Part shown: piece by piece, positions 27,119 through 39,988 of the stretch
Position numbering within the stretch: the stretch's first letter is position 1
How the letters are laid out: every line of letters starts with the position of its first letter
Source: Eledone cirrhosa
Taxonomy: Eukaryota
Reading direction: 5' to 3'
NCBI GenBank assembly: GCA_964016885.1
Contig: OZ024756.1
Location: 23,808,001-23,872,000, forward strand
Length of the DNA stretch: 64,000 bases
The notes under the pieces: generated by a model
The model's database searches: none
Seen by the model: only the letters and a program-made list of their open reading frames with translations
What the model was told of the DNA's origin: nothing
Made by a program: the position numbers and the translations under genes

Positions 27119-30100
27119 ATGATGGCAGATACTGAAAACGGCGAACAGGAAAGTTTTAACATGGACTCGTCGGTAGATGCTATAGGAGTTACGGGAAATG
27201 ATGAATCAGTTGAAGATCCTGTAAGTGATTAATTCTCTCACATGAAGTGCAATTATATATATATTTATCGATGTATATATATATTTATATATAGCTATTT
27301 TCTTTTAACACCTAGAATTTTTTTTGTTGGATCCCCCTTTCTTTGATCGAGTTGGCGAATTCGCCTTTTAATTCCTCTTTTTGTTTTATGATATTTCTAC
27401 GAAGACTTGGCGATTCGAATGTTGCTTTAAATACTTGCAATATTTTCCGAATTATTTTTCCTTCAATGTGTCAATTTCTTTATTTTAGACGCCATTTCAT
27501 ATATATAATATCTATTTTTTGCCTTAACGCATGGACACTGAAAATGGCGGAGAGTAAGATTTATAGCTAAGATGTTTTCGACAAAACCCAGATTTCTTTA
27601 AGACATCACCGTTATATATAGATTGTTGATTTTTTTTCTCTTTATTTTTTTTTCAATATATGTTGGTAACCTTTTTAATGTATAGAAATATAATTATATT
27701 TACACACATGTATATATATAATGAGAGAAAGGTTTTAATTTAATAAAAGCCGGTTTGGCATGCAGAGGTATATATTAAATGTCTTTAAATGTAGCAGATT
27801 TCCTTTCTTTTAAAATATACTTTCCCCTGACTTACTGCAATGTTTGAAAGAAACTCGACCTACCGGTATCTTTGTTACGTTGTTTGAACAATTTAATAAA
27901 AAATGCCATCGTTAAGAATATATCCCTTTGCCTTTCAAAGCTTCCTACATGCAGCTAAAGCTCATATATATAATCTTAGCTTTAAAAATTTATAGATAGT
28001 AAAATGGTTACAGTATATTTTTCTTCTATATATTTTTATTTTTAGGTATGAGCTTATGCTACTTTTTTCAACATCTGCAATGATAATCTTTGGACTATTA
28101 TATATATATATATATATATGTATATATTTAAAGAAGATAAATGAAATAGTTTTCGTTTTGTGTTTTTTATTAATAAAACTATTTTTATTTAGATGATATA
28201 CAATAATATATAGCATCTTATACAAGATGATTGAGATGTTATGTATATTGGTGACAAATTTCCTTTTTTATATATATATATACATATATGTGTGTTGTGG
28301 TTGGGGAAAGAAATTGATACGACATATTTCGTTAAATGGAGATCTAAGTGAAGCGATCAAAGTAAAAAAGATGTTAAAAACTGTCGAATCAGTCGAGAAC
28401 GCTTCCCGAGTTCGAATCTTGGTTATTTTTACACAAAGTTACCTTTTCACGGGGAAGGTCACCAACAGCATTTCTTCTCCCTCCTATCTCTCCACCTCCT
28501 TTTTAAATTAAAATTTCTCTTTGTAAAGCAGCAGTAGTATATATGTATATATTATTTTCTCGGTTTTAATCATAATTTTAAGATTAGTGTAATGATAATA
28601 CAAGATATTCGAATACTGAAGGACATATATCTATCTTTACATGTAGTCATACGTACTGCTGTATTTTAAGAAAGTGGGTTATTTTAAAAATATAATAATA
28701 TATATCTATCTTTACATGTAATCTGATATATATACATACATGCGGCTGTATTTTAAGAAAGTGGGTTATTTTAAAAATATATAATATAACCACCAGGCCA
28801 TTATCTGACTGTCTTTTATACTCACTCCCACATCAACATATTTAATAGAGAAGATCGATGTGAAGAAACTTTGTGGTTCAATAATTGTTAATTCTTAACA
28901 TTGCAGAGAGGTAATAGGAGCAGTGTTATGTAAAGACCCGTTGTTTCTCGATATATACGTATGTAGTTAACGGCCGTGAGAAAAGAATACTCAATACCGA
29001 AGTAGAGTTTGAATATATATATGTAGATGCCAGAGGCAGTTAAAAAGGGTACTCAATACATTGGTAGGGAATTTGCATTTTTTATTTCATATTGTAATGA
29101 CTTATACGGGACTAGAACTGTTTGATTCGTATGAAATCATAAATATATATATATATATTAGAACATAGGTAATTGTTGAAAAATGGAAATGTATTGGCAT
29201 ATGGTTTATTCGCAATATTTTATTCGCCTTAGGTATATGAATTTGACAATAAAATGGAACTAAATGGTACCTAATTTATCGCCCTGTATATTTTAGGCTT
29301 TTGCCATTATGTTAAAAATATATCTATCTAAGCTTTAAACTGTATAATGTTACTGCTGCTAAAATTATATCAAAGTCATCATATTACCTGTGATATAGGT
29401 ATATTTTAAAACGTGATCATATTAGGGCGTTTTTTATTTATTTTTTTTTTAGATCAGGAATTTTAAATATTTTCCCGTATATTTGGACTGTTTAGCATTT
29501 TTTTTTTTTTTTCCCCAGTATGAAAAATATTAAATGTATTCTTTTAAAACTTATCAAGAATAATAGAAAATGCTATAAAAGATATAAGTAATTGCCTATT
29601 TGAAATCATATCGACTGATTACCACTTGTATAGTGCACACACGTGGCATAGCATATTGTGTTTCACAAGTATTTAGGTTGTTTTATGTTGGGTTTATAGA
29701 TAGTCTAACAATGACGTCTGTAACCAAATTCGGCTTCATTACCTGTAATCCAAACTAAATCAGTTTTACATCGGTTATTAAGCTTTGCTACAAGCTGTTG
29801 TTTCTACAAATCATTCGGTGTTGTTTTTTTGTTAGTTTTTTTGTCGCTCGACGTAGGTATATATAGGTGTTTTATGAATATATTATTTTGTTGGCTAGTT
29901 CCACTTCGTTTCTGACCGAGCAGATCTTTATATATATATATACGCACACATATACTGCATTTTGATAGATAATCAAACTTTTCTTCCAAATCGTGAAAGA
30001 TGGTTGAAAAATAAAATAATCCTTGGATGGATTTATTTTTAATTGCTTTTATTGTTAAAAATAATTCTTGTCCAAGGCATGTGGTTGAATTTACTGATGA

Positions 30101-33100
30101 TATAATCGTTTTTATATTTTCTTCTACAGGAATTAGAAGCTATTAAAGCAAGAGTTAGAGAGATGGAGGAAGAAGCAGATAAGTTAAAAGAGTTGCAGAG
30201 TGAGGTTGAAAAACAGATGAATATTGGTGCTATAAGTAAGTGTATTATTTTAGGTCCCTGTTGGGGAAATAGGGTTGCCGAAAAAAGTTGTTAGAGCGTC
30301 GGACAAATGCTTAGCAATATTTGCCCTGCCTTTTTTTACGTTCAAATTTCAAACCCGCTGAATTTTGCATTTAATCTTTCCGGGTTGATAATATAAAGTA
30401 CCCATAACGCAATGGGATCGATTTAATTGACTTTCCAAATTGTTAGTCCTATGCCTAAATTAGAAACCATTATCAAAAAATTGAATTGCTCTAGAGATCA
30501 TCCATGGAGAAGAACTGTGATAAAATACATACCACCTGTGTATTATAGTCATTGTCCAGTATGTCCTTCCTTTTATTACCATATTTTTAAAGGGATTTAC
30601 TGAATTTACCTTTTGAAATTGATGGGTTTATATTAAAAGGGTTAAACTATTCAGATTTGTTAGGCTGAGCTCAAATGTCCTTATTATTATATCCTATTGA
30701 TAAAAGGGAATTTTTGTCCTTATTCTAGCTAGCCCCATCCAAAATAGGGTAGCAGCAATTTGTGGTCAGATTGTTGTGTAGTAGATCGATGTATGACAGC
30801 ATTTAAAAATGGATGTTAAATCTATGATGATTATTTAAGAACAGAAAATTAGTTGTAGTATCCACTTAGAGAAAATGACAGGTGCTAAATCCATCAAAGA
30901 AATTTTTCAGATTCCTTTCTACTGACTTGGATAATGGATGCTTTTTAATTTTGGCATTTGAAGAGGGGGAAAATATTGTTGGTTTTTGTTTGGCATTTGA
31001 AGAGGGGGAAAATAAGTTGGTTTTTGTAATACAAAGTAAGAAAAGTTTTCATCTGTTGAGGGAAAGAAAACTAAATGAAATGATTGTGCGATGATAAAAT
31101 GAGTAATAGATCATTATTTGAATTATTCCTGTGAGTAGAGGAGATAACTCCATGATTTTTCAATGTTATTAGACCTCCTCAGCAATAATTTACCAGCTAT
31201 GTAAAGTTGATATTCATGAACCATTGACTAATATAGACTATTTATTTTCCCGACTTATTTAACCTTGAAATAGTGTATTTCATGACTATCTCTCATGAAA
31301 TACACTATTTCAATTAATTAATGAAGAATTTGGAGGGATTTACTAAGATAGTAACTTAATATAAGAATATAAGGTTCTCATAAAATTATGTTGAAAGATT
31401 CTAATTTAAAATGGAGGTTTTTATAACAGAACCAGAAGAATCAGGTTGGTAACTAAAATGTTAAAACATTCTTTGCATTAGGTTTGCTCACTATAACATG
31501 AGGTGTTTTTCTGTGAATACTTGTAGGTTGTGGTGATAGCTTAAAGTATTTTTCACAAGTTGTTTTGCAATGACTAGAGTTGTTAATGAAAACCTATTTT
31601 AGGTATTAGCAAGATTCAATCTACTTAAGGAAATATATTGAAACAATTGCATTTTAATTTTAACAGCAAATTTTCCTACATATGAAGAGAAACTGGAAGC
31701 TGATCAGCGATCTATATTTGTTGGCAATGTAAGTAAATTCTGATATAATGGTATTGGTATTATGCAGTAGAATCGGTAGAGCGTTGAACAACATGCTTTG
31801 CAGCATGCAGTTGTGACCATTTACATTCTGAGTTCAAATCCTGTTGAGGTTCGCTTTGCCATTCATCATCCTTATGGAGTTTGGGGTCGTTTTAATTGAC
31901 TTTCTCCTCCCTCAATATGTTTGACCTTGTGCCTAAATCTGAAACCATTATTAGTAAGATTGGTGAATTAGCAGTAATTGGTAGAGCAACTGACAACATG
32001 CTTTGTTGCGCCCCTTTACAGTCTGAGTTCAAATCCTGCAGGGGTGAATAAAGTACCGGTAACATGTTTCTTCTCCCACCAAAACTGTTGGCCTTGTGCC
32101 TAAATCAGAAAGTTTGTGGATTGGCAGTAATCAGTAGAGCGTCAAGACATGCTTTGCAGCATATTGTTGCAGCCCTTTACATTCTGAGTTAAAATCCTGC
32201 CTGGGTTAATTTTGCCTTTTACCCTCACAAGGTTAATAAAGTAAAGTACCAGTAACAAGCAGGGGTTGGTTTAATTGACTTTCTTCCACCAAAATTGTTG
32301 GCCTTGTGCCTAAATCAGAAACCATTATTGTAAAACTGAATTGAGAAAGTCCCCAATGATTTGGATTAAAATGCTTTTCAGTATTAGTTCCGAATCTCTG
32401 GGCTCGTTAGTTGTGCCTTTCATACTTTTGCGTTTTGGCAAAGTACATGTCCAGAGCAGTGGATTTGCAGAATTGTTAGTGAATTGAATGTGGTGTTTTA
32501 CAAGCATTTCTTTGGGCCCTATGTTACTTAGCTATCTCACTGGAATTAAGCTGTCAGCATTTACTTAGACTACCATCGGTAGCTTGGAGAGGAAGGCTTG
32601 CTTGCATGGGTGGCTGATGGTTGTTAAGACTTTGTTCAGGCTTGCACCTTGGAAAGGAATCTTCCTGGTGCAAAGCCCTGGCTAGCTAGACATTAAAGGG
32701 GCCTTTGACTCTTAACAATTATACTCTATTTCAATTAATGAAGAATTTTAAGGGATTTACTAAAATTAATTTTCCAGTTCTGAGATAGTTGGATTAAATT
32801 CCTTGCCATTATTTAGTTCAAATCCCATTGAAATCAACTTTGCTTTTTATAAGTAAGTACCTGTGAAGTACTGGCATCAATATAATCAACTGTCCAGTGT
32901 AAGATATTGGAAATCATGGATTGGTTGCTTGGGATCTTTTCAAGTACGACATATATGATAGGCAGTTGACACCACAGGTTTTATAAACAACTTTGTGGCA
33001 GCTGGCATACATATATTTATAAATATATATATGCATACACAATAGGCTTCCGTACAGTTTCTGTCTACCAAATTCACTTGCAACGTATTGGTTGCTCTGG

Positions 33101-36100
33101 TAGAAGACACTTGCCCAAAGTGTAATGCACTGGAGCTTTGCTTGAAATCATGGGTTTCCAAAGTAAACTTGTTTAAAAACGCTACCATACTTGCCTGCGT
33201 CTATTTGTTCATGTATTTGCTGACTTTGATACTGAATGTTCAATTTGATAATTATTTTTCAAGGTTGATTACGGTGCCACTGCTGAAGAACTTGAACAAC
33301 ATTTTCATGGTTGTGGTTCAGTTAACAGAGTAACTATCTTGTGTGACAAATACAGTGGACACCCTAAGGGGTAAGTAACAGTATTAAATGTGTATATCAT
33401 CATCATCGTTGCGATCACAGTTGAACATTCCTGACAAAGTCTCTCCCCCTCTCCACAATTCTTAATTTTCCATTGCTCTGGCAGTTGCTCTGCTCCTTAC
33501 TTGGATTTGTATCATCTGTGAGTTGATTGATGAATGTTCAAGCAGGTCTTCCTCTATTGAATCTCCCATGAGTTGGTTCCCATGATAGATAGATCATTGC
33601 AACCACAGTTGAACATTCTTAACAAAGTTTTTCCCTATCCTATTCAGGATTTTCCATTGCTCCTTATTGGGGTTTGTATCATCTGAGAGTTGATCGATGA
33701 ATGTTCGAGCAGGTCTTTCTCTACTGTTTCCTGTGAGTTGGCTCCCACAATAGGAGCTTGTGTATAACTTCCTGCTTACTTCTTCAACCTTGTGTTGCAA
33801 ATTTTTATAAAGTTCAGATATCCAGCTAGGGAAGTTTCCCCCCACCCCTCAAATTCCATAGGTAAGTCAAAGACTGACAAGTAAACAAAACTGAAGATAT
33901 ATTAATCCTTTTTTTGTCATAAACACTTTAAAATAGTTTTGTCTTGTAGAACCTGGACCAGTTTTCAGTTTATTACAAAAGTTTCCAATCTGGTTTCTTG
34001 GTCTGTTGTTCATTATTTATTTACTTTTAATTTTAGATTTGCATATGTGGAATTTGCTGATAAAGATTCGGTTGGAACTGCTATGGCTTTAGATGAATCT
34101 CTTTTTAGAGCGAGACAAATCAAGGTAGGTAAACTCCATCGTTACATTAAACTTCACTTGACCAGTGGATAAATGGGGCATGGTAGGGTTTTAAAAAAAA
34201 GAAAAAAACCTTTCACACACAACAATAACTCTATTCTAGTTCTGGTGTAGCTGTTAACTAGTTGAGCTATTAAATTTTTCCTTTTAATATAGTAGCATCG
34301 AGTTAGAGGAGGAGTCGTCACCCACCATATAGGTTTTGGGGAAAGTGTATTTTAAAAAAATATACATATGAAAGAAGAAAAAGAAATTTGAAAAATGTTA
34401 CCTAATCTTTAAGGCTAGATAGATTGGGCAATGTGTATCTAATTACTAAACAGAGATCTTGGAAGTGTTATTTCTTGCCTGTTTAATCATGATTTTCAAT
34501 GCACTTCAAAAATGAACTATAATATATTTCTAAGTTGTTGACTTATCAAGCTGCTTTGCAAATGGTGTCTAATTTTATCAGACGCTCTCAAACTCCTTTA
34601 CCTGAACTTTCCCCCCCTCCCCATTTTTGTAGTGAATTGTAAAGATCAGTGATTAAATATGCAACTTTTAAAAATTCTATTACATTCCAAGATCTTTGTG
34701 TTGTATTTTATCTCTAATTCTGCACTGTATGCCTCTTTACATACATGATCATTCCATCATGTTTAGTATGTATACACTGAGGTGCCGACAGATCCTAAAA
34801 AGAGAAGAGACGAGAAAAAAAGATATATACATTTTGTATTTTTGTAAGCTTTCCTGTCAGTATTTGATCTTTCGGCCGTTTTGTTTAGAACAGGTTGGCT
34901 TGCAGATGAGGCTTTGCATTTCAAGAGGAGAAATACTGGTGTCATGAGATTGCTCCAACATAAGAAATTAACTTGAAAAAAAAAATTTTAAAAAAGCAGG
35001 AAAAAAAATTGCTAAAAAAATTAAGATACAAAAAAAAGCTAGAAAAAAGTTAGAAAAAAATGAAAAAAAAGCAAAAAATCTTATTAAAAAAATTTCTGGA
35101 AAAAAAAAATAATTTTTGGCGAAATGAAAAATGGGGCGTTTTCTAATACCAGCTACTTGTGTAAAATTGTGGAATTGGTGTTGGATGTCTGCCGCTGAAG
35201 TGCCACACATTGAAGGTAAGCCTTAGTTTTAACATAACCCCAGTTGTAACTACTCTACAGACATGGCCTCTTGTAATTCTGGCAGTGTGTTTGATATTGA
35301 TCTCAGCTCGGCTGGCACTAAGCCTTTTTACGTGTCTTGAGCTTCACTGGCTGCTGCTTCCATTTCCAGAAATTCCATCAGTTATTAATTTTAGATATGT
35401 TAGAAAGAAAGAAAAACTTAGACAGAGCATGAGCTTATTATTCCACGTATATTTTTGCTATGCTCTTAATTTTAAAAATTACAAAAAGAGACTTAGAAAA
35501 AAAAGTGAAAAGAAAAGAGAAAAAAGCAAACAAAAAGCTTATATTAGATTCAGTGTTTAAGAAAAATAAGTTGCTTAGAAGTTAAGGTAAAATACAATTC
35601 AAGATGGCAGCTTTTTTTTCTGATGGATGAACATTTTAAAATATGTATACCTACATATATATATTTATATATTTATCTATATATAAAATACTAAAGGCAT
35701 AAAATATCTTCCAGAAAATAATACTTGAAAAATAGCAAGAGGAACAAAAAAAGGTAAAAAAAAGTGTGATGAAATCTTATTAAATGCAATTTTTTTCTTA
35801 TTTTTTAAAATTATTATTATAAGGTTTTCATTTCAGAGTACAGGTGAGTAATAAGAGGCTCCAAAAAAGGTTGACTAACCAAGTCCTCTGTTTAATTATC
35901 TTTCACTTTTGACACCCATCCCTTCATTATTTTTTTTTTTTTTTTTAGTCTCTTCATTAAGGCATTTATCATTACTAGTAACTTTTTTTTTTTTTATTCT
36001 TCATTAAGTCATCATTGTAGTAACTTTTAATTAATTATTATTATTTCCTAAGATTTAGCTCTTCTAAAATCCTGGACTCATTTACTTTCCATTTCACGGA

Positions 36101-38137
36101 GAAATTTCAAGAACATTTCAATTTTCTTTCTTTGTTTTTCTGTCTACTTTGTCAAAAAGGTAATGGCTAAGAGAACAAATAGGCCTGGCATCAGCACTAC
36201 AAACCGTAGCAGAGGGCGTTCTCGGCGAGGGAGTTATTTCAGAGGTGGTGGCATGGGTTCTGGATATTATCCTTATGCACCAAGATCTAGGCCTAGATAC
36301 AGGTCAGTGTAATAATAGATTGTACTTGCAATATATTAGTTTTTATTTTTTTCTTTTTCTTCAACAGTTCAAGGCAAGTATGATTTAAGTATCTCACTTT
36401 CATTGTATTATCACAGAATGTAAACACACACATACATGCTCATATATATATATATATATACATATTGATACACTTTATATATATTCACATATAAAAAAAT
36501 ATACATATGCATATAAGTGTTGTGAATGCAAATAAACAGCCTTATATGAATATGTATATTTTTTTCACTGTTGTTTATTGATTTAAATGACAGTTCATTT
36601 CATGTCTTAAGAGTATCTTAACAAAAATTTTCTGTGAAATCATTCATTATAAAGTTTATAATTATATAAAAATTGTTTATTTTTGGATTATATTCCATGT
36701 ATATATAATCCTAACTTTTATGGCAAACGATAAATTAAGGCTGGAGTCAACATTGGAAATGTTAATAATTTTTGAAATATTAATTTGGCATTTTACATTT
36801 GTGTATCAAAGATACTCTTAATTTACCTCTAAAATATCTGTATATTTCCAAACTGCTTTTGGTGCTCAAATATGGTTACGGGCCTCCGTTGCTCTGAAGT
36901 AAAACAATCAAGTTAATTTGTAAGTGTTTAGGCAGATAGTTAACAGTATTTGGACTTGAAATCTCTTCATTGTTCTATTATTTATATGGATTACTTAAAG
37001 CTTTCTTTAAATAGTGAGTATTTTACTTGGCTGCTCTATGTCCTTTAAACTAGAACAAGAATGATTTCAAGTTCAAATTAAGACCCAAACAACATTGTCA
37101 AGAGGAAAAGCTCTTCAAAAATATTCATTTCGCTCCTAAATTATTATTATTACTTTTTTTTTTTCTCTCCTGCTGTTCCATTGCCTTAATTTTTCGTGTG
37201 CTTAAATTTGGCATTTAAATAAGTCAATCCTAAGCTGATGTGACATTTCAATCGATAATTAAATTTTTAATATTTTTGAGATTGCTATTGACACTTTGTT
37301 GTTTGGGTCTTCTTCAGATAAAGATTATACATACACCATCTTTCAAAGTGAAGCTTCAGACAGGATTGTACCATGTGAATCTCCACAGTTTATGGCAACT
37401 GTCATTTTGTTTCCAAGGCACCCACAGCATCCAGGTGAATGACTTTGTGAATTGTGATGATGTGAATATATATATATATATATTTATATACCATATTTGA
37501 TGGCTTATAAGACACACCCCAATTTGGGCAGGCATTTTTTTAAAAAAATGAATGGGTTTAAACTATGAATGTCAGGTGAAAGGTGTAAAGTTTGTACATA
37601 TTTTTTTTATTATTCTACATCGTAGTACTGGTGATTTACACTGTAAAGTGGTTGGTGTTGGGAAGGGCATCCAACCATAGGAATTTTGCCAAACAAGGTG
37701 TTACGAGGATCCTTCAGTTTAAGTCAAGACAACTTCTCTGCAAGTGAATCAACCTCTTCAGTCTGTCTTGGTTTATATAGATCTGTCCGACCCTTGTTAA
37801 GTGATTGTATCTATTGTTGTAGAAGCGATCACCACCTTATTTGCAAAGATGTTTGTGATTTAATTTATGGGCCACTGCAGCACTAGAACTCTACTAACCA
37901 GTAACCCAAACTGATTCTGGACGATGCAATTCAGGGGGAATTTCTGAGATGATTTGGAAAAAAACGTGCATCTTATAAGTTGTCAAATGCGGTATATCTG
38001 TTTATCTATGTATGTAAATATATACATATATTTTAAATTTTATTTCAACATAAATTCACATTTGTGAGTATCCATATATACTTTTATATTTTCGTTTCAG
38101 TCGCTTCCGGAGGTCGCTTTGGTACCACCCTTACTGA
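27119..38137 (+). CDS. PABPN1: Polyadenylate-binding protein 2 / nuclear poly(A)-binding protein 1, 214 aa, 7 coding exons
   Basis: Exons 27119-27220, 30130-30235, 31667-31728, 33264-33370, 34037-34124, 36160-36302 and 38101-38137 are all GT-AG with consistent phases. Protein: acidic N-terminus, coiled coil [21 protein letters not shown] ([28 protein letters not shown]), [11 protein letters not shown], Arg/Gly-rich tail ending WYHPY*. Confidence 0.97.
33400..33760 (-). mobile_element. Two tandem RTE-group LINE 3'-end fragments in PABPN1 intron 4
   Basis: [14 protein letters not shown]-like peptide occurs twice (33405-33595 and 33595-33750), with a (GAT)n tail on the minus strand. Confidence 0.55.
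34894..35215 (+). other. Candidate poison exon of PABPN1 containing oligo(A) tracts
   Basis: In-frame acceptors at 34860 (TTTCCTGTCAG) and 34893 (TTGTTTAGAACAG), stop TGA at 34945-34947, strong donor AAG|GTAAGC at 35216. Confidence 0.5.
35837..35843 (+). other. Candidate 7-nt frameshifting microexon (AGTACAG) of PABPN1
   Basis: TTTTCATTTCAG|AGTACAG|GTGAGT: a consensus acceptor and donor 7 nt apart. Confidence 0.45.
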
Positions 38138-39404
38138 GCACTCTTTACTTGGAGGATTTCCATTGTATTAAAGAATATTTTCAAGGAGATTACATTTCAT
38201 CTGCCACGCTTTTTAATTTTTTTTTCATCTCCTAACAGGCAACTTAGTTGATCCTTCAGCTCAGCTGGCCTATTTTATATTTTTGCAGAATTTTTAGATT
38301 TTTTTCCTCCCATTTGGATGACCCTAGGTCAGTGTGTGAGTGCTTGTCATGGAAGCGTCTGGAGTTCGTATCCTGAATTATGAATTATTTTTTCTCTACT
38401 GGGGAAAATATTTTGTTCTCTTTCAGCTGAGTCAGTTTTATAATTAGATAAATTTAGTTTTGTTGGAGTCAAACAGAATGCATTTGAACAGCTTATGTTT
38501 GTAGTGTATGTGTATATATGTGAGTGTATTTATTTATGTATGTATATACACATTCATAGTTTCACGGAAAGATACTTTCAATACTACTGGGTTAAGTTAA
38601 AATTATATATCTAAATTATTAGCAGAGATTTTGTTTTCGTTATTAAATCTGTTCAGTTTTCAGTCAGGTGAATTCTATCTCTGCTACTATAGTACTTCTT
38701 TATTCTTTCTTAGGTTTAACTGACCAGTTGATTAGTGGAAAAATTTTATTTCAATTTGCATTATCTTGTTACATTGTGGCCAGTCCCATTCCACTGTTTT
38801 TCCATCATATTTGAGTGATCCAGGAAGGAGAGTTAAAATGTCATGTTGAGCTATTTGCAAGAGTCAAAGTGCTGTTTAACTCGTTCAATCAAGCATGTCT
38901 TACTCCTCGGTTGCTATTAAAGCCTTCATTCCTGGCTTTTTGTCTTTAAAAACACAAATTAATTTTTTAAAAAACTTCAATTTCTTAATCATGAGCTTTT
39001 TCTTCTATTACTCTAAATGTTGAAATTTAGCTGATTAGGATCTGTTTTACCCCCACATGTCTAGTGTTTCTTTTCAACCTCCGGTTCTTCCTTCTCCTTT
39101 GTTAACAATGGTTTAGTATAGCTATTTGTTTTACATTCTACAATGTCTCCACTTCAAATTACTAGCACTATACTTATTATTATTATATCTATCAATTTGG
39201 TATTTACTGCTTGAATTTTAAGTGCAAGCTTGGCTCTTGATATGATTTAGCTAGAAGCAATATTCATAGTATGCAAGTTGTGTTATTTCTCTCGTGAAGA
39301 ACAATTGGTATGGATGTTAGTGACTGTATGCCATCATTTTCAGTCCTCATGGCCAGGTGCAGAGGAAATGTAGGTAAAAATGTTTCTATTTATGTATAAA
39401 TTTG

Positions 39405-39410
39405 AATAAA
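39405..39410 (+). terminator. Putative PABPN1 polyadenylation signal
   Basis: AATAAA ~1.27 kb after the stop, with upstream TGTA and downstream GT-rich sequence. Repeats resume afterwards. Confidence 0.5.
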
Positions 39411-39988
39411 AATTTTAAAATGTATACAAATGAGTTATGTTTGTTCTTGGAGGTTGGAGACATAAATAAGAATTCATTGATCATGCACAGATTGATGGTT
39501 GATGTAGCTGCCCATTAAAGCAGATTCTTATGATTGGGTCTTCTCGAATATTAAGCCAACCTTATTTTATGTCTAAGAAATAATCCAGGTAATCAACAGA
39601 GTTTAGATATTTATATATATATACACTACCTTAATGTCTGTCTGAACAGTAAGAGGTGAGAATTCTGGCCAGATAGAACCAGTTTAAATGCTTTTGTTTC
39701 ACAATTCAATAATCACAGCTAGCCCCTATAGCTGAGGGTCACACCATTGTTTGCTATATTTAGATACACTTGGTGATAGATCAATGGAATCGCCTGCTCA
39801 TATAATTACTGTGTAGTGGCTGAGCATGTACCATTAATGTAAATCCAAGATATATTTAGAATGACTGATAAGGCTGGTCCTTTGAATTATAGCTACAGGT
39901 GTGCAAGGGATGCAGAAGTTCAGGTCAAAGGAAATGAGTTTTAACGACCATAAATAAATAAGAAAAGAGACTTTTTTTTTTTTTAAAT

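Follow-up and report, generated by a model that had tools for sequence, protein, structure and literature searches.

An oligo(A) array behind a conserved stop-carrying exon start in intron 5 of octopod PABPN1: a possible PABPN1-sensing switch of unproductive splicing

Introduction

In human cells, an A-rich stretch in the 3' UTR of the PABPN1 transcript is bound by PABPN1 itself, upon which the terminal intron is kept and the RNA is passed to the nuclear exosome (PMC5602073, PMC8707817, PMC12385487), an autoregulation credited to Bergeron et al. (2015) by these papers and by PMC6884704. Comparable self-limitation has been described for yeast Nab2, acting through an A26 tract (PMC12581835), and for mammalian PABPC1, acting through an A-rich element of the 5' UTR (PMC4691835). 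In addition, a mouse Pabpn1 isoform is annotated as a target of nonsense-mediated decay (NMD; PMC10840355), so that a mammalian counterpart of the forms described below is possible. The dose of PABPN1 governs both the length of poly(A) tails and the decay of RNA in the nucleus, and in the literature found its self-control has been worked out only in mammalian cells.

For the octopod gene, an original prediction made from the letters of the DNA had proposed a PABPN1 autoregulatory cassette in intron 5, consisting of a stop-carrying exon loaded with oligo(A) tracts. Here, this proposal is compared with annotated protein isoforms of relatives, with genomic background and with PABPN1 transcripts of other eukaryotes.

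Results and Discussion

PABPN1 Gene and Intron 5

The window, i.e., the whole stretch of 64,000 nt from Eledone cirrhosa that was analyzed, carries on its forward strand (+), like all features given below, a PABPN1 gene reaching from start to stop codon at 27119..38137. It comprises seven exons (27119-27220, 30130-30235, 31667-31728, 33264-33370, 34037-34124, 36160-36302, and 38101-38137), forming an open frame of 214 aa that is identical to the Octopus PABPN1 protein P0009 in 206 of 215 alignment columns, to an Argonauta protein in 190 of 215 and to a protein probably from squid in 179 of 216. These values fit an octopod near to the named Octopus species yet different from them. The assignment is in line with a single RRM (RRM_1, residues 87-156 of P0009), a coiled-coil region, an Arg/Gly-rich tail with PY end and orthology to named PABPN1. 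The human gene is likewise laid out in seven exons, in agreement with the borders seen in the octopod gene. Introns 1 and 2 bear short tandem duplications (28625-28788 with a period of 87 and 30950-31027 with a period of 39, respectively).

In intron 5 (34125..36159), which is retained in annotated O. vulgaris isoforms, A-runs outnumber T-runs by 33 to 12. This applies to none of the other five introns, where the A/T counts are 12/24, 3/11, 1/2, 0/3, and 6/12.

Extra Exon and Its Annotated Isoforms

Within intron 5, tandem internal acceptors are found at 34887..34893, with AGs ending at 34888 and 34893. Splicing to the first results in the tail RQIK|NRLACR with a stop at 34909, splicing to the second in a 17-residue tail with a TGA ending at 34947. 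Both tails are already annotated in Octopus, the former in isoform P0007 (XP_029647329.1 of O. sinensis and CAI9737417.1 of O. vulgaris; NRLACR identical in 6/6 residues to the peptide deduced from the window), the latter in P0008 (XP_029647328.1 and CAI9737416.1, respectively; 17/17 identical), each with the stop in place. Splicing of the extra exon at its acceptor is hence on record in annotated isoforms of two Octopus species, these being gene models and not from E. cirrhosa. The original expectation that inclusion would add a stop-ending peptide is borne out by the very same peptide in O. sinensis and O. vulgaris. From the two in-frame acceptors proposed at that time, the one at 34893 recurs in the Octopus models, whereas use of the other, at 34860, was seen in none of the eight octopus sequences; the acceptor at 34888 had been missed, although it is one of the two present in the gene models. 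In line with this, the single branch-point-like motif in the 60 nt preceding the exon (34864..34868) would be placed 21-26 nt upstream of the used acceptors and downstream of the AG at 34860. As acceptor 34893 is followed by GT, recursive splicing was considered as well; in this intron of 2 kb, it would regenerate a donor of poor quality.

The Octopus PABPN1 protein cluster consists of six members, and a second cluster of two O. vulgaris records. Among the eight octopus sequences, two employ the internal acceptors, two show intron-5 read-through, two intron-6 read-through and two the full tail. In P0134 and P0136, both from O. vulgaris, exon 5 reads on into intron 5. P0135, in which an unrelated N-terminus is joined to a squid-type tail, probably arose as a chimera during assembly and was left out of all counts. 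Every internal-acceptor or intron-5 read-through form stops before exon 6, and the annotated short forms of 173 or 162 aa keep the coiled coil and the whole RRM while the arginine-rich tail is lost. Altogether, intron 5 presents a conserved cryptic exon within a retained intron of more than 1 kb, as is characteristic of decoy exons. The O. vulgaris isoform models are most probably transcript-based, because, according to the genome paper, PASA was used to add alternative forms on the basis of aligned reads, both short ones and Iso-Seq (PMC10700109).

When searching the region with the alternative tail, three proteins among seven candidates were obtained, and the exon peptide did not turn up in any additional species, the underlying clustering at 90% hiding isoforms. 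The isoforms are present in public annotations, albeit unremarked: in titles and abstract starts, subscription journals being outside this coverage, neither the exon nor PABPN1 autoregulation in molluscs was found to be described, nor did passages of PMC5546720 and PMC7356254 contain anything of relevance.

Candidate Donors and the Exon-6 Acceptor

On the 3' side of the exon, the donor motif AAG|GTAAGC previously noticed at 35216 is indeed present (35216..35221, consensus in 8 of 9 positions) and would close an exon of 322 or 327 nt. A second candidate donor at 35844..35849, overlooked in the original prediction, corresponds to the consensus in 9 of 9 positions and would close an exon of 950 or 955 nt comprising all three A-rich blocks described below, all of which lie between the internal acceptors and 35844, with the intron being T-rich beyond. 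For donor-like sites with at least 8 of 9 positions, the expectation is 0.44 per 2035 nt, and two were found in the other five PABPN1 introns; the exact word AAGGTAAG is expected 0.02 times. Protein records end at the stop and are hence uninformative on the donor at 35216. With the candidate donors at 35216 and 35844, the distance from stop to junction would amount to 268-306 and 896-934 nt, respectively, the TGA ending at 34947 being 268 nt upstream of the junction at 35215, as good as the approximately 270 nt initially estimated. The perfect donor at 35844 is preceded at a distance of 7 nt by an acceptor-like AG with its end at 35836, and the stretch 35837-35849 is possibly a micro-exon or a second decoy unit.

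The regular acceptor of exon 6 (36137..36159) shows an A-run at its end and A at position -3, and P0003 and P0004 read KK|V over the same border. Since a branch-like motif was absent from the 60 nt before it, as likewise before exon 7, and with the A-run in view, this acceptor is probably weak. Read-through of intron 6 (36303-38100) is seen in P0001 and P0011 of O. vulgaris and in four of seven probable squid members, which recalls the retained terminal intron of the human gene.

Conservation of the Exon Start

Conservation was deduced from the peptides of relatives and not from their DNA. Over the 59 nt at the exon start (34889..34947), bearing stops in both frames, the Octopus peptides require 0 nucleotide changes in two frames, stops included. 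As control, the O. vulgaris read-through peptide was compared with the first 117 nt of intron 5, giving agreement in 20 of 39 columns; by our own scoring, this 5' end of the intron requires 10 substitutions and 7 indels, i.e., 17 events over 126 nt. The difference between 0/59 nt and 17 events/126 nt is significant (Fisher p 0.002), albeit with a crude control, as unrelated DNA costs 31-32 versus 24 for the control, of which a run of 12 residues is identical as well. Judged from these peptides, the exon start appears to be more conserved among octopods, over its first 59 nt, than the intron background in the crude control. Near the 5' end of the intron, the 36 nt at 34207-34242 translate into 12/12 residues identical to the O. 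vulgaris read-through peptide and may represent a second conserved intronic block.

In the probable squid cluster, three of seven members end in a tail of 13-14 residues after exon 5, beginning like donor read-through, and the other four end just after exon 6. The three tails do not match anywhere in intron 5 of the window, and the exon is therefore shown only within octopods; for Argonauta, the one record is of the full form. These records suggest that retention-like forms occur beyond octopods, the extra exon being seen within octopods only.

Oligo(A) Array

The sense strand of intron 5 bears three A-rich blocks, all at the places originally predicted, with A contents of 68% (34976..35109), 67% (35475..35540), and 63% (35725..35765). 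The first is the main oligo(A) array and candidate landing pad for PABPN1. It starts 29 nt past the stop at 34947 and, in accordance with the earlier description as about two-thirds A in runs of A6-A10, contains 11 runs of 10, 6, 8, 7, 8, 6, 7, 8, 6, 7, and 10 A in a total of 134 nt. The spacers, often purine-rich, are 2-9 nt long and not 2-5 nt as previously assumed. Also the supposed spacing of about 10 nt had to be revised to a center distance of 12.4 ± 2.2 nt (range 9-16.5 nt), so that the array is loosely periodic and strict 10-nt phasing, as in DNA bending or PATC-like elements, is ruled out.

No other 134-nt stretch in the 64 kb is as dense in A-runs: the array has 11, the runner-up 6, and the best T window 5. 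Shuffling of intron 5 exceeded 5 runs per 130 nt in 0 of 500 cases. In 54 arbitrary 10-kb genome stretches (540 kb, both strands), at least 11 runs were reached at three sites from two loci, all of them short-period microsatellites, besides one irregular site with 9 runs, and at least 33 runs on one strand, as in intron 5, in only 1 of 216 chunks of intron-5 length. The array is predicted to be 68% unpaired, compared to 38-44% in its flanks, which is expected for A-rich RNA. Its longest run has 10 A and none 11, the latter being the footprint of PABPN1 (PMC12581835). A unit of run plus spacer of about 12 nt is close to this value, which may be coincidence. A lysine-rich open frame of 46 codons over the A-block is attributable to chance, as 590 of 5000 spacer shuffles reach that length. 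In the Rfam search of 34100-35700, no match came near the gathering score; two at 21-23 bits were dropped at a cut-off of 50.

3' UTRs and Other Poly(A)-Binding-Protein Transcripts

The 3' UTR region of the productive octopod mRNA (38138..39437, with AATAAA at 39405) is U-rich and lacks an A-run array, with 5 A-runs versus 10 T-runs in 1300 nt and a best window of 2. An A-rich region of the human type was accordingly not found in the 3' UTR of this gene.

For comparison, a metagenome scan with P0013 as query gave 219 confirmed PABPN1 loci, of which 80 were kept (L011-L090), none of them recognizable as cephalopod, the best match having 82% over a long segment. In 46 of these, the frame consists of a single block with PY end, and at least 300 nt follow the stop; they collapse to 39 clusters at 90% identity, for which A-runs were counted in 130-nt windows of the first 1000 nt past the stop. 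At least 6 A-runs per window were present in 12 of the 39 distinct PABPN1 mRNAs of other eukaryotes, compared with 1 of 39 for T-runs, this being a count made without control genes; at least 7 were present in 8 of 39 versus 0 of 39. Before filtering, the proportions were 16/70 and 1/70. Nearly all of 200 composition-matched shuffles are exceeded by 18 of the 39 clusters, and fewer than 4 runs were seen in 16. The two mRNAs whose nearest relatives among 36 named proteins are from snails have 8 and 7 A-runs. Arrays of A5-A10 runs past the stop begin, for example, at 1158 in L011, 833 in L017, 762 in L046, and 836 in L064. The distribution suggests, with the 12/39 having been obtained without control genes, that elements corresponding to the human one in the 3' UTR exist across animals; alternatively, many invertebrate UTRs may be generally A-biased.

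Tentatively, and with considerable doubt, an ancient, animal-wide autoregulation of PABPN1 via A-runs might be envisaged, with the sensor normally residing in the 3' UTR and having moved in octopods to intron 5, where it would drive a poison or decoy exon with tandem acceptors, so that a poly(A)-binding protein would directly switch the splicing of an internal exon. Speaking against the wider idea, an intronless PABPC gene on C21 shows no sense-strand A-run array in the 10 kb analyzed, upstream sequence included. This copy (L096, 634 codons) is one of two PABPC-like open frames without introns that were noticed, the other being located on C7 (L097, 621 codons). As roughly one in three unrelated PABPN1 mRNAs carries an A-run array past the stop, public transcriptomes would allow for a direct test of how widespread the human mechanism is.

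Proposed Feedback Switch

The annotated acceptors and read-through forms, the conserved exon start, the density of the array, its single-copy flanks and a UTR lacking such an array are all consistent with a PABPN1-sensing switch of unproductive splicing, corresponding to the feedback loop of the human gene but with the sensor placed in intron 5, to which we assign a probability of roughly 0.5. Free PABPN1 would occupy the A-runs of its own pre-mRNA, where, given a footprint of 11 A and about 12 nt per run and spacer, approximately 11 monomers might fit onto the main array. Binding would stall splicing at the internal exon or redirect it there, away from the splice between exons 5 and 6, and the probably weak exon-6 acceptor would buy time for this decision. 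Either the RNA would then keep intron 5 or part of it and undergo nuclear removal like its human counterpart, or the exon would be closed at 35216 or 35844, leading to NMD. All unproductive products would stop before exon 6 and hence be without arginine-rich tail. Stalled splicing with retention is considered a little more likely than inclusion as a clean cassette, since annotated forms exist for retention but not for use of a donor. Against such a switch, it can be argued that no run reaches 11 A, and that intron-6 read-through is on record, so that the human-type route via the terminal intron may still be operating. Taken as a whole, the original prediction is partly supported, namely by the annotated exon, the read-through forms, the conserved exon start and the recurrence of A-run arrays, while acceptor 34860 and the 10-nt periodicity found no support.

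With the human system (PMC5602073, PMC8707817, PMC12385487), the octopod case would share the gene itself, an A-rich element encoded in the genome and present on the pre-mRNA, and the occurrence of incompletely spliced forms; in contrast, the human element is located in the 3' UTR and concerns the terminal intron, whereas the octopod array is found in the extra exon of intron 5 and the UTR has none. As in yeast NAB2 and PABPC1, a poly(A)-binding protein is proposed to read an A-rich stretch of its own transcript, although these examples, according to the descriptions available, operate at 3'-end formation and translation (PMC12581835, PMC4691835), while in the octopod case the splicing of an internal intron would be affected. 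Similar to the poison cassette exons of SR proteins (PMC6884704, PMC11062102), a conserved stop-carrying exon in the gene of an RNA-binding protein holds the regulator's presumed motif, but the octopod exon is conserved over 59 nt among octopods only and would enter NMD through candidate donors. Finally, with the decoy exons of SF3B1 intron 4 (PMC6097662) and ARGLU1 (PMC5602073) it has in common the conserved cryptic exon, the retained intron of more than 1 kb and the occurrence of both forms; in contrast to the putative octopod decoy, an A-array sensor is not mentioned in the descriptions of these cases considered here.

Provided that the switch exists, cephalopods would have a second architecture in which the feedback is kept and the wiring changed, as in the poison exons of splicing factors. 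It would also allow for a clean test of whether PABPN1 on internal, interrupted A-runs steers splice-site choice away from the 3' end.

Alternative Explanations

A regulated unproductive exon might also be read by another protein, such as ZC3H14/Nab2, cytoplasmic PABP in the nucleus or an SR/Tra2-type factor, which would mean cross-regulation. Conservation and annotation of the exon are silent on the binder, Nab2/ZC3H14 is known to bind A-tracts as well (PMC12581835), and the purine-rich character of many array spacers would suit this view. Nevertheless, it is considered unlikely in light of the A-run arrays recurring in PABPN1 transcripts of many lineages, the self-binding in the human case as described in the papers cited above, and the PABPC gene examined lacking such an array within 10 kb.

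Instead of being unproductive, the exon might serve as alternative last exon for a tail-less PABPN1 of 173 or 162 aa, with the A-blocks as its 3' UTR or as sites of internal oligo-dT priming. Both forms are filed as protein-coding isoforms with complete RRM_1, the peptide is fully conserved, and ATTAAA hexamers are present at 35083 and 35779. As predicted NMD substrates are usually entered as non-coding by the NCBI pipeline, the coding status would favor a terminal exon. On the other hand, annotation and conservation extend to two frames whose tails are unrelated, which points to a constraint on the RNA and not on the peptide. Moreover, ATTAAA and AATAAA together occur 12 times in 5.6 kb of this AT-rich region, and the A-blocks are followed by two consensus donors. 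A terminal exon is thus rather improbable.

The switch would likewise be dispensable if the annotated forms reflected splicing noise, i.e., low-level use of a cryptic acceptor beside a neutral tract, with the array being a decayed microsatellite or repeat fragment. Any AT-rich insert yields a stop, and arrays of A- or T-runs exist elsewhere (four sites with at least 9 runs in the 540 kb). In the genome, the 411-nt region around the array has 10 matches, comprising itself and nine others at 71-83% identity that cover the A-block only, three of them members of one dispersed repeat. To the repeat copy L002, the array is similar at a score reached by 7 of 500 order-shuffles, but L002 was picked from a genome-wide search and the related copy L006 is at chance level (112/500). 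Furthermore, the flanks of the array resemble none of the dispersed-repeat copies, and both are single-copy with the self-match alone in the genome, a lower bound as the search skips simple repeats. With both acceptors recurring in the annotation of two species and no change in the third, and with the array on the sense strand inside an exon of a poly(A)-binding-protein gene, noise is hardly a probable explanation. Insertion of a transposon or dispersed repeat was rejected, given that multi-copy sequence with matching flanks was not found within the same lower bound, in agreement with the original statement that intron 5 is without recognizable transposons. The repeat itself (L002, L006, and L009) is a dispersed AT-rich element of about 2.5 kb, with copies 78-88% alike and an internal A-run tract.
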